From: Escherichia coli
Lineage (GTDB): Bacteria > Pseudomonadota > Gammaproteobacteria > Enterobacterales > Enterobacteriaceae
Reading direction: 5' to 3' (one strand)
Assembly: GCF_022846255.1 (NCBI RefSeq)
Contig: NZ_AP025682.1
DNA: 64,000 nucleotides
Each line of letters starts with the position of its first letter. The stretch's first letter is position 1. The notes below the pieces were generated by a model that was not told the DNA's origin, made no database searches, and saw only the letters and a list, made by a program, of their open reading frames with translations. Positions 55,118 through 59,207 of this stretch are shown here, piece by piece. Made by a program: the position numbers and the translations under genes.

Positions 55118-55240
55118 CGCCTGGTTTTATTTATTTTCCAGCTCAATAGCAAATTCAGATCAAATCAGCCTCGCAAATCATAGATTCATAACCAATAATG
55201 TGCTGTTATGTATACATGCAAAAACAAGGAGAGAATGCTT

Positions 55241-55669
55241 ATGTACAAAACAATCATCATGCCAGTGGATGTTTTCGAAATGGAATTGAGCGACAAAGCG
55301 ATTCGCCACGCTGAATTCCTCGCCCAGGATGACGGAGTTATTCATCTACTTCACGTACTACCGGGGTCAGCCAGCCTGAGCCTGCACCGTTTTGCCGCTG
55401 ATGTACGTCGTTTTGAAGAGCATCTGCAACATGAAGCAGAAGAACGTTTGCAAACGATGGTCAGCCACTTTACCATCGATCCTTCCCGCATTAAGCAACA
55501 TGTCCGTTTTGGTAGTGTGCGGGATGAAGTTAACGAGTTAGCGAAAGAACTTGATGCAGATGTAGTAGTGATTGGTTCGCGTAACCCATCAATTTCAACT
55601 CATCTGTTGGGTTCTAACGCCTCGAGCGTAATCCGCCACGCCAATTTGCCGGTGCTGGTTGTGCGTTAA
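55241..55669 (+). CDS. uspG: universal stress protein G
   Basis: ORF 55208..55669; start set at [26 protein letters not shown] with aaggagag SD; 142 aa. Confidence 0.9.
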
Positions 55670-55728: not shown

Positions 55729-55760
55729 TAAAAAAGCCGCCAGGTTTGACCCCGGCGGCT
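55729..55760 (-). terminator. rho-independent terminator after ahpF (minus strand)
   Basis: reverse complement agccgccggggtcaaacctggcggctttttt. Confidence 0.65.
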
Positions 55761-55789: not shown

Positions 55790-57355
55790 TTATGCAGTTT
55801 TGGTGCGAATCAGGTAGTCAAAAGCACTCAGAGAGGCTTTGGCACCTTCGCCAGTGGCGATGATGATCTGCTTGTACGGAACCGTCGTACAGTCACCCGC
55901 TGCGAACACGCCTTTGACGTTGGTTTCGCATTTCGCATCAATGATAATCTCGCCCATGCGATTACGTTCGACTGCGCCTTCCAGCCAGTTGGTGTTCGGC
56001 AGCAGACCAATCTGGACGAAAATACCGGCCAGTTCGATGTTGTGAATATCGCCGCTGACACGATCGCGATATTCCAGACCTACGACTTTGCTACCGTCGC
56101 CTTTCACTTCCGTGGTTTGCGCATTCAGAATAATGTCGACGTTTTTCAGGCTGCGTAGTTTGTCCTGCAGAACCTGGTCGGCTTTCATTTCTGGCGCAAA
56201 TTCCAGCAGCGTTACGTGCTCAACGATACCCGCCAGGTCAATTGCCGCTTCCACGCCGGAGTTACCGCCGCCGATAACCGCTACGCGTTTGCCTTTAAAC
56301 AGCGGGCCGTCGCAGTGCGGGCAATAGGTCACGCCTTTGGTGCGATACTGATCTTCGCCAGGAACGTTCATGTTGCGCCATTTTGCACCAGTCGCCACGA
56401 TAATGCTGCGTGCTTTCAGTACCGCGCCAGAAGCTGTTTCAATCTGATGCAAGCCGCCTTCAACCGCTGCCGGGATCAGTTTGCTCGCGCTCTGGCTGTC
56501 GATCACATCAACGTCGTATTCATCAACATGAACTTTCAGCGCACCTGCCAGTTTCTGGCCTTCGGTCTTCGGTACAGAAATGTAGTTTTCGATATCAACG
56601 GTATCGAGGATCTGACCACCAAAACGTTCGCCCATCAAACCGGTACGGATGCCTTTACGTGCGGAGTAAATTGCTGCCGCTGCACCCGCCGGGCCGGAAC
56701 CAACGATTAATACGTCATAAGCATCACGCTTATTCAGCTCTTCTGCCGCACGTTTTTCCGCACCAGTATCAATTTTGGCAACGATTTCAGTCAACGTCAT
56801 GCGGCCCTGACCAAACTCTTTCCCGTTTACGAACACTGCCGGAACGCCCATCACGTTGCGATCGGTGATTTCGTTCTGGAAGGTGCCGCCGTCAATTGCA
56901 GTGTGCTTGATGCGCGGGTTCAGTACGCTCATCAGGTTCAGCGCCTGCACCACGTCCGGGCAGTTGTGGCAAGAGAGCGAGTAATAGGTTTCGAATTCAA
57001 AATCACCGTCAATATGGCGAATCTGCTCCAGCAGAGACTGCGCTTCTTTCGACGGATGACCACCGGTCCACAGCAACGCCAGTACCAGCGAGGTGAACTC
57101 GTGGCCCAGCGGGGAGCCTGCAAAACGTGGTCCCTGGTTGGAACCTGGGTTGGTGATCAGGAAAGACGGCTTACGCACCGGCAAGCTGTTATCTTCTTTA
57201 AAGGTGACTTTGTCTGACAGTTCTGCGATTTCAGCCAACAGTTCCTTGATTTCTGCCGATTTAGCGCTGTCATCCAGCGTGGCAATTAACTCAACAGGCT
57301 TGGTCAATTTCTCAAGGTAAGCCTTGAGTTGAGTTTTCATATTTGTGTCGAGCAT
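55790..57355 (-). CDS. ahpF: alkyl hydroperoxide reductase subunit F
   Basis: ORF 55790..57385; start set at [16 protein letters not shown]...; two redox CxxC centres (CHNCPD, CPHCDG) and FAD/NAD GxGxxG motifs. Confidence 0.95.
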
Positions 57356-57525
57356 GTTTATCTCCTGGGCTTTAAACATCATCATGCAAGCGGCCTCTGC
57401 GGCTAGCTGGATGCAGCTTGCATCATGGTGCGGGGAAGAAAATCGGGTGCCGCAGCACCCGAAGAATTAGGTGAATTTCCGAAGTATCTCGCGCCGGAGT
57501 TGATAGCGCGAAAGACGAAGGAAAT

Positions 57526-58089
57526 TTAGATTTTACCAACCAGGTCCAGAGACGGAGCCAGAGTTGCTTCACCTTCTTTCCATTTAGCCGGGCAAACTTC
57601 ACCTGGGTGAGAAGCTACGTACTGTGCTGCTTTGATTTTACGCAGCAGGTCTGACGCGTCACGGCCAATGCCTTCAGCGGTAACTTCGATTGCCTGGATG
57701 ATACCCTGCGGGTCAACAACGAAGGTCGCACGGTCAGCCAGACCTTCATCTTCACGCATGTTGTCGAAGTTACGGGTCAGGGCGCCAGTCGGGTCGCCGA
57801 TCATCGCATATTTGATTTTAGCGATGGTTTCAGAGCTGCTGTGCCATGCTTTGTGGGTGAAGTGAGTATCGGTAGATACTGCGTATACGTCTACGCCCAG
57901 TTTCTGCAATTCTTCGTAATGGTCAGCAACGTCACCCAGTTCGGTCGGGCATACGAAAGTAAAGTCAGCCGGGTAGAAGAAGAAGACGCTCCAGCGGCCT
58001 TCGGTATCTTTTTCGGTGATTTCGATGAATTCGCCGTTTTTGAATGCCTGGTTTTTAAAAGGTTTAATTTTGGTGTTAATCAAGGACAT
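57526..58089 (-). CDS. ahpC: alkyl hydroperoxide reductase subunit C (2-Cys peroxiredoxin)
   Basis: 187 aa; peroxidatic FTFVCPTE and resolving VCPAKW cysteine motifs. Confidence 0.95.
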
Positions 58090-58460
58090 CTATACTTCCT
58101 CCGTGTTTTCGATGAGATGTAAGGTAACCAATTTTTGCCGATTCGGCTAATGCGTTTCCATTATCAAATCGATAAGTTTTACCTTACAACCTTCGTAAGA
58201 CAACTTTGTGAACTTTGCACCGCCAGCGGCGATAAAAAGTAAAATGGCCCCCTTTCCAGGTGACCGTGTAATCTGAACTACCCTTTGGTATCTTCAGCGC
58301 CTGCCTGCAGGCTGAGGTGTTGCCCTTACAAATGCAACAACGACATGGATTACAACACCCTCATAAACAAAGGGCAATCACCTGATCTAAGCTCTTACCT
58401 ATGACAGTGATAGGTTATGCCTTTTACTCGACTTTTGCACTGACTGAAAAGGACAAATTA

Positions 58461-59207
58461 ATGTTAAAAAAGATACTTTTACTGGCCCTGCTTCCTGCAA
58501 TCGCCTTCGCAGAGGAACTTCCTGCCCCAGTAAAAGCGATTGAAAAACAGGGTATTACAATCATCAAAACGTTCGATGCCCCTGGAGGAATGAAAGGTTA
58601 TCTCGGTAAGTATCAGGATATGGGCGTCACCATCTACCTGACTCCAGATGGTAAGCACGCTATCTCTGGTTACATGTACAACGAAAAAGGTGAAAACCTG
58701 AGTAACACGCTTATCGAAAAAGAAATTTACGCACCCGCCGGACGTGAAATGTGGCAACGGATGGAACAATCCCACTGGCTCCTCGACGGTAAAAAAGACG
58801 CGCCGGTCATTGTCTACATCTTCGCCGATCCGTTCTGCCCATATTGTAAACAGTTCTGGCAGCAGGCTCGTCCGTGGGTAGATTCTGGCAAAGTGCAATT
58901 GAGAACATTGTTGGTTGGGGTTATCAAGCCAGAAAGCCCGGCGACAGCAGCGGCAATTCTTGCCTCCAAAGATCCCGCAAAAACCTGGCAACAATATGAA
59001 GCCTCTGGTGGCAAGCTTAAGCTAAGCGTGCCTGCAAACGTAAGTACAGAGCAAATGAAAGTGTTAAGCGACAACGAGAAACTCATGGACGATCTGGGGG
59101 CAAATGTCACACCAGCTATCTATTACATGAGTAAGGGAAATACCCTGCAACAGGCCGTCGGATTACCCGATCAGAAAACACTTAATATCATTATGGGGAA
59201 TAAATAG
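58461..59207 (+). CDS. dsbG: periplasmic thiol:disulfide oxidoreductase DsbG
   Basis: ORF 58401..59207; start set at [17 protein letters not shown] signal peptide; CPYC active site. Confidence 0.9.

Follow-up and report, generated by a model that had tools for sequence, protein, structure and literature searches.

A very likely composite of leaky terminator and RNase III hairpin in the ahpC-ahpF spacer of Escherichia coli

Leaky terminators located inside operons and combined with RNase III processing are found at rpsO-pnp and at rplL-rpoB. Intercistronic hairpins of the REP/BIME type, such as that at malE-malF, are derived from repeats and can protect the upstream message, leading to differential expression within an operon; they were reportedly described by Higgins in 1982. 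A third group relevant to the locus analyzed here is that of the ERIC elements, which reviews describe as 127-bp MITEs that are co-transcribed, form a long hairpin, and have a reported effect on the stability of upstream mRNA.

The ahpC-ahpF operon of E. coli K-12 is itself on record. According to Gordon et al. (2017, mBio, PMC5371410), RNA-seq of the wild type vs. an rnc deletion placed a site of RNase III action within the ahpC-ahpF spacer, at NC_000913.3:639695, where cleavage was verified in vitro with purified RNase III. In the same article, the half-life of ahpC mRNA is approximately 14 min in the wild type vs. approximately 6 min in the rnc deletion, the stability of ahpF mRNA is the same with or without RNase III, and the authors propose that cleavage leaves a protective 3' hairpin on ahpC mRNA. 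The enzyme is described there as an AhpC decamer plus an AhpF dimer (PMC5371410). Moreover, the curated Term-seq 3' ends of K-12 MG1655 (Adams et al. 2021, eLife, PMC7815308, Supplementary file 1) include 639668 (LB, OD 0.4), 639670 (LB, OD 2.0) and 639668 (M63). Within the supplementary files of that study ahpC was listed in a single table, that of 3' ends upstream of ORFs, and ahpF was named in none of them, the table of Rho-termination regions included (PMC7815308).

In this work, the ahpC-ahpF spacer was analyzed in a stretch of 64,000 nucleotides of an E. coli genome (contig NZ_AP025682.1 of assembly GCF_022846255.1; hereafter, the window). The terminator-like hairpin, the RNase III hairpin and the ERIC element have each been documented already in K-12, and the allele of this region present in the window is a natural and common one.

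Organization of the spacer and its alleles

The features of the locus are listed in Table 1. According to the RefSeq annotation of this allele, the spacer comprised 170 nt (57356-57525), and it contained three hairpins on the mRNA (minus) strand, named HP1, HP2 and HP3 from ahpC to ahpF. When the mRNA strand was compared with 200 dinucleotide shuffles, the whole-spacer fold gave z = -4.21, with none of the 200 shuffles folding equally well. Considered individually, z values against 200 shuffles were -4.01 for HP1 (-19.2 kcal/mol), -5.79 for HP2 (-16.6 kcal/mol; 0/200 shuffles as good) and -2.58 for HP3 (-23.4 kcal/mol; 3/200 as good). A search of the spacer for promoter-like sites on the minus strand gave no consensus match.

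Table 1. Features of the ahpC-ahpF locus in the window, and spacer alleles among complete E. coli genomes
Feature	Position in window	Strand	Description	Basis or occurrence
dsbG	58401-59207	plus		ORF list
ahpC CDS	57526..58089	minus	187 aa; stop TAA 57528..57526	ORF list and RefSeq annotation, identical alleles
HP1	57474..57526	minus	53-nt imperfect hairpin starting in the ahpC stop codon	Inverted repeat, fold, ERIC alignment
HP2	57443..57462	minus	Stem-loop UCGGGUGC-UGCG-GCACCCGA; 8 bp, 6 G-C pairs	Fold and covariation
HP2 U-tract	57436..57442	minus	UUUUCUU	Sequence; K-12 Term-seq 3' ends
HP3	57377..57430	minus	Imperfect hairpin; long-range pair of the initial annotation	Inverted repeat, fold, published RNase III site
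ahpF Shine-Dalgarno	57362..57366	minus	AGGAG	Sequence and conserved purine block in cross-genus alignment
ahpF CDS	55790..57355	minus	521 aa; ATG 57355..57353	ORF list, RefSeq, tblastn starts in 60+ loci
uspG	55208-55669	plus		ORF list
Spacer allele, 244 nt			Full ERIC; K-12-like	1764 genomes, approximately 33% of complete E. coli genomes
Spacer allele, 170 nt			ERIC centre deleted; form of the window	At least 2294 genomes at >=99% identity, approximately 45%
Spacer allele, 128 nt			Without ERIC; e.g. strain ERL04-3476	Approximately 17% of complete E. coli genomes

An initial annotation of this region had described a spacer of 140 bp holding a long-range inverted pair and a tight hairpin, neither of them followed by a T-run. 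The tight hairpin, GGGTGC-cgca-GCACCC, was found exactly at 57445-57460 and extended to a perfect 8-bp stem (TCGGGTGC/GCACCCGA, 57443-57462), i.e. HP2. The long-range pair also exists, and its right arm, gcttgcatcatg, lies at 57416-57427 as reported, whereas the left arm, catcatgcaagc, occupies 57380-57391 and not 57379-57390; the complete repeat, corresponding to HP3, was larger than described, with 21-nt arms (57377-57397 and 57410-57430) that are 81% complementary. Since ahpC and ahpF are both encoded on the minus strand, the description referred to the antisense strand and missed the T-run, which on the minus strand (TTTTCTT, 57442..57436) is located directly 3' of the tight hairpin. The third hairpin, HP1, beside the ahpC stop codon, had gone unmentioned.

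The length of 140 bp resulted from taking the in-frame ATG at 57385 as the start of ahpF, which in the RefSeq annotation of identical alleles starts at 57355 (MLDTNMK). Three consecutive AUGs (57377-57385, minus strand), located in the 3' arm of HP3, share the reading frame of ahpF in E. coli, so that mechanical ORF calling adds 10 codons to the gene (55790..57385) and thus leads to a wrong spacer length. In the cross-genus alignment, these upstream ATGs were not kept in frame with ahpF in other genera. The use of AUGAUGAUG as an upstream start or mini-ORF was consequently discarded, as it was in frame with ahpF only in Escherichia and elsewhere ran into a stop or was out of frame.

The spacer region was 100% identical to that of E. 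coli strain SK1144 over the 301 bases searched, and was matched in 5422 of 5426 complete E. coli genomes. A separate case was observed in E. coli DH5alpha (NZ_CP045741.1, locus position 610-650), where approximately 85-105 nt were missing, in a stretch that begins at the 3' side of the terminator, takes in HP3 and the Shine-Dalgarno sequence, and includes the first codons of ahpF; ahpF of this assembly showed a further small deletion, a different annotated start and a shorter product. This deletion could be either a real mutation of a laboratory strain or an assembly error.

HP1 (arms 57474-57494 and 57506-57526) consisted of both ends of an ERIC/IRU repeat, with approximately 74 nt of its centre deleted. 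Its halves aligned with the ERIC ends present at ahpC-ahpF in K-12, Salmonella, Citrobacter and Superficieibacter, and with the ends of the ERIC copies located after ybiT and between rpsB and tsf, these copies aligning along the whole long hairpin, the outer stem of HP1 included. The ERIC core (sites of the ERIC-PCR primers) was absent across the entire 64 kb of the window at <=3 mismatches, so that the copy at this locus is a truncated derivative and not a full member of the family. The extra 74 nt of the K-12 spacer were placed in the loop of HP1 and matched both ERIC-PCR primers (1 and 2 mismatches); an assignment of this insert to the "Box C" repeats was dropped in view of the primer matches and the alignment, which identified it as ERIC. 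Members of the ERIC family were detectable at a median of 8, and a maximum of 15, places per E. coli genome.

A full ERIC was present at the same site in Salmonella, Citrobacter werkmanii, Enterobacter sp. Bisph1 and Superficieibacter, suggesting from sequence comparison that the long form is probably ancestral and that the form in the window is probably an internal deletion. A deletion junction very similar to that of the window was observed in E. albertii, which could reflect either an old polymorphism or its exchange by recombination. As it is missing from the 128-nt allele, HP1 is dispensable; most likely it is external to the core mechanism, either as a passenger or as an element with a minor role in stability. 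The three coexisting spacer alleles, which differ in whether ERIC is complete, truncated or lacking, could slightly shift the stability of ahpC mRNA.

Between dsbG and ahpC, upstream of the latter, a match to the Rfam model of the enterobacterial small RNA family STnc70 was found (58234-58327, minus strand; 44.1 bits vs. a gathering score of 40; E = 3e-7), and the Salmonella locus matched the full model (188.9 bits, locus position 909-1057). Just past ahpF, a strong terminator-like hairpin (55735-55760, minus strand; 10 bp, 8 G-C pairs) was followed by TTTTTATT. In an Hfq-CLASH study of E. coli, the 3' UTR of ahpF is a candidate source of a 3'-UTR-derived small RNA (PMC7213987). Literature reports of a small RNA derived from the ahpC-ahpF spacer were searched as well and none was found, the Hfq-CLASH candidate belonging to the ahpF 3' UTR instead.

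The hairpin and U-tract downstream of ahpC

HP2 begins 64 nt past the ahpC stop codon, and together with its tail shows the features that are standard for a terminator, namely a G+C-rich stem-loop on the transcribed strand and a U-rich tract immediately 3' of it. Judging from these features, HP2 and the U-tract are predicted to be a canonical intrinsic terminator on the sense strand. The flank printed in the Term-seq table (PMC7815308), ending in TTCGGGTGCTGCGGCACCCGATTTTCTTCCCCGC, was identical to the window. From HP2 to the ahpF ATG the window and K-12 were colinear, with one loop SNP and no indels; given this and the K-12 ahpF start at 639753, the 3' ends at 639668 and 639670 correspond to window positions 57440 and 57438, both inside the U-tract, with Term-seq not telling termination apart from 3'-to-5' trimming that stops at a hairpin.

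In order to characterize the conservation of HP2, its stem was compared across 22 Enterobacterales. A total of 93.8% of cells were paired, and six of the eight pairs had changed on both sides, as in the Salmonella stem GGGCGC/GCGCCC, a compensatory change. This level of covariation was reached by none of 500 shuffles, and controls in which the arms were slid paired in 26-45% of cells. At a broader scale, a terminator-like hairpin was detected in 40 of 68 proteobacterial ahpC-ahpF spacers vs. 6% of shuffled spacers.

Additional observations were made on the distribution of these elements. In Pantoea sp. Mb-10 (locus position 1793-1826) the terminator, with its UGCG loop and UUUUCUU tail, was nearly base-for-base the same as window positions 57436-57464, and the remainder of that spacer could not be aligned with the E. 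coli spacer. The GGGUGC/GCACCC stem was also present in Providencia, Brenneria and Arsenophonus, and terminator-like hairpins between ahpC and ahpF were common well outside the enterobacteria. The spacers of the 68 proteobacterial loci were never shorter than 68 nt and reached up to 410 nt, and hence ahpC and ahpF are apparently never translationally coupled.

Since Term-seq is blind to the difference between termination and trimming, the mapped 3' ends could also arise if HP2 were only a 3' stabilizer, in which case all transcripts would read through, RNase III would cut HP3, and exonucleases would trim the upstream piece back to HP2. Consistent with such a sequence of events, cleavage by RNase III stabilizes ahpC mRNA and a protective 3' hairpin was put forward by the authors (PMC5371410), and the Term-seq table contains no 63969x entries, i.e. 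no stable 3' end at the cleavage site (PMC7815308). However, a U-rich tract was found directly 3' of the HP2 stem in 20 of the 22 Enterobacterales, including Pantoea, Erwinia, Providencia, Brenneria and Arsenophonus, in which HP3 is absent. As a U-tract would be needless for a pure exonuclease block, the restriction of HP2 to a stabilizing role fits poorly, all the more given the terminator features of hairpin and tail, and it was considered decidedly unlikely in comparison with termination at HP2.

The RNase III hairpin upstream of ahpF

The approximately 20 bp of HP3 fell into six helices, interrupted by internal loops or single mismatches, and amounted to about two helical turns of double-stranded RNA. 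The K-12 cleavage position 639695 is the C in GCAAGCUGCAUCC, corresponding to position 57413 of the window, in the upper 5' arm of HP3. On the basis of this published coordinate (PMC5371410), HP3 is assigned as the RNase III processing site.

HP3 was present at >=95% identity in 5421 of 5426 E. coli genomes, and its range covered Escherichia, Salmonella, Citrobacter, Enterobacter, Leclercia and Superficieibacter. In genera without HP3 (e.g. Pantoea, Erwinia, Providencia, Brenneria and Arsenophonus), the terminator was located only approximately 20 nt from the ahpF start. A dispersed repeat nature similar to that of HP1 was discarded for HP3, as it was single-copy.

The arms of HP3 were invariant at 25 of 32 positions (78%) across 13 taxa, vs. 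24 of 156 (15%) four-fold degenerate sites of the flanking genes (Fisher p = 8e-12). Invariant positions were distributed as 16 of 18 in the 3' arm and 9 of 14 in the 5' arm, and the 3' arm, GCUUGCAUGAUGAUGUUU, was kept at a fixed distance of 17-19 nt from the ahpF AUG. Compensatory changes were searched among the 13 pairs and none was found, and six uncompensated disruptions were observed; the structure of HP3 is therefore backed by folding energy and experiment, and not by covariation.

This conservation of sequence, far above the requirement of pairing, is a point worth following up. The higher conservation of the 3' arm relative to the 5' arm, together with its fixed distance from the AUG, is one feature that the known facts do not fully explain. 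It is conceivable, although rather improbable, that HP3 is more than an RNase III substrate and that its 3' arm is read by a sequence-specific partner controlling ahpF translation, because the arms are near-invariant across genera, changes break pairs without compensation, and the distance from 3' arm to AUG is fixed. Candidates for this role are a protein, a small RNA, or the ribosome, for which the processed leader could act as a standby or enhancer site; the 5' arm would then be kept only to mask the site of the partner until RNase III cuts.

Other roles for HP3 were evaluated and discarded. The spacing between its arms varied from 24 to 31 nt, which argues against a DNA-level site for a dimeric regulator. 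In the minimum-energy fold of the window, UCUUC past the terminator paired with GGAGA; across 14 taxa, the accessibility of the ahpF Shine-Dalgarno sequence was alike before and after simulated cleavage (mean approximately 0.52 vs. 0.61, partition function) and its pairing partners differed between taxa, so that an unmasking of this sequence by the RNase III cut was not retained.

The possibility that the spacer functions as a regulated attenuator, whether of the riboswitch, leader-peptide or antiterminator type, with read-through switched by a signal such as peroxide, was also examined. Its appeal lies in the nature of the operon, which belongs to the oxidative-stress response, and in a 7-nt complementarity between the top of HP2 (CUGCGGC) and the loop of HP3 (GCCGCAG), a possible alternative structure. 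However, this pairing is not conserved, either as an antiterminator or as a kissing contact, both loops being different in other genera. Moreover, the spacer gave no match in Rfam even at E = 10, the AUGAUGAUG run yielded no conserved mini-ORF, and the mobile repeat upstream of HP2 comes in full or truncated form, or is missing, depending on the E. coli strain, so that no conserved sensor resides there. Regulated attenuation was consequently regarded as very improbable. Finally, the notion that the inverted repeats are chance palindromes or repeat debris without effect on expression, to which the origin of HP1 as a remnant of a mobile repeat and its lack from the 128-nt allele might lend some appeal, has next to no probability and is already contradicted for HP2 and HP3 by the fold z-scores (-2.6 to -5.8), the covariation of HP2, the conservation of HP3 far above flanking four-fold degenerate sites, and the published 3' ends and RNase III cleavage located exactly on these two hairpins.

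Proposed mechanism and comparison with known systems

Taken together, it is very likely that the minus strand of the spacer carries a composite intercistronic control, made up of the leaky terminator HP2 and the RNase III hairpin HP3. Transcription initiated at the OxyR-controlled ahpC promoter would run into HP2 and its UUUUCUU tail, where part of the transcripts would stop and yield a stable ahpC-only mRNA. Transcripts that read through would carry HP3, and the RNase III cut would separate ahpC from ahpF. The upstream piece would end at HP2, or presumably be trimmed back to it, and be protected by this hairpin, while the downstream piece would constitute an ahpF mRNA with a short leader. AhpF would be translated from read-through RNA, processed or unprocessed, and the net outcome would be an ahpC message more abundant and longer-lived than that of ahpF, in agreement with the decameric AhpC and dimeric AhpF of the enzyme.

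The interpretation offered by the initial annotation, an attenuator or processing structure, is supported by these results, even though the description behind it was partly wrong with regard to the strand, the T-run and the ahpF start: both kinds of element are present, each with published experiments in E. coli K-12. Likewise, the mapping of 3' ends had been suggested as a check, with the absence of 3' ends in the spacer as an outcome against the proposal, and the K-12 Term-seq data place 3' ends inside it. The further suggestion that the elements of the spacer set the AhpC:AhpF ratio would be in line with the mechanism outlined above. All of the experiments come from K-12, whose 244-nt allele has a complete ERIC ahead of HP2, and their outcome would be expected to carry over to the strain analyzed here, with its 170-nt allele. 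The unequal amounts of the subunits of a very abundant E. coli enzyme may thus come off a single promoter, by the successive action of a leaky terminator and an RNase III cut.

The ahpC-ahpF arrangement represents a textbook case of operon fine-tuning, on record for K-12. Over HP2 with its U-tract, HP3, and the Shine-Dalgarno sequence and start codon of ahpF, the window differed from this very locus in K-12 MG1655 (Gordon et al. 2017; Adams et al. 2021) by a single SNP, in the loop of HP3. The difference resides in the region between the stop codon and HP2, where K-12 has a full-length ERIC (244-nt spacer) and the window has lost its centre (170 nt). With respect to the ERIC/IRU family of 127-bp enterobacterial MITEs, HP1 shares the alignment to both ends, the imperfect palindrome and the membership of a multi-copy family, but the copy in the window lacks the central core, retains 53 nt, and would not be bound by the ERIC primers. 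The REP/BIME hairpins belong to a different sequence family, and the main work at ahpC-ahpF would fall not to the repeat but to a dedicated terminator together with an RNase III hairpin. In the case of pnp, cleavage destabilizes the downstream message, whereas at ahpC-ahpF it stabilizes the upstream message and leaves the stability of the downstream one unchanged. A parallel is found in pflB-pflA, which, as discussed in PMC5371410, likewise combines a hairpin and U-tract past a highly expressed gene with a nearby RNase III cut and unequal expression of the two cistrons.
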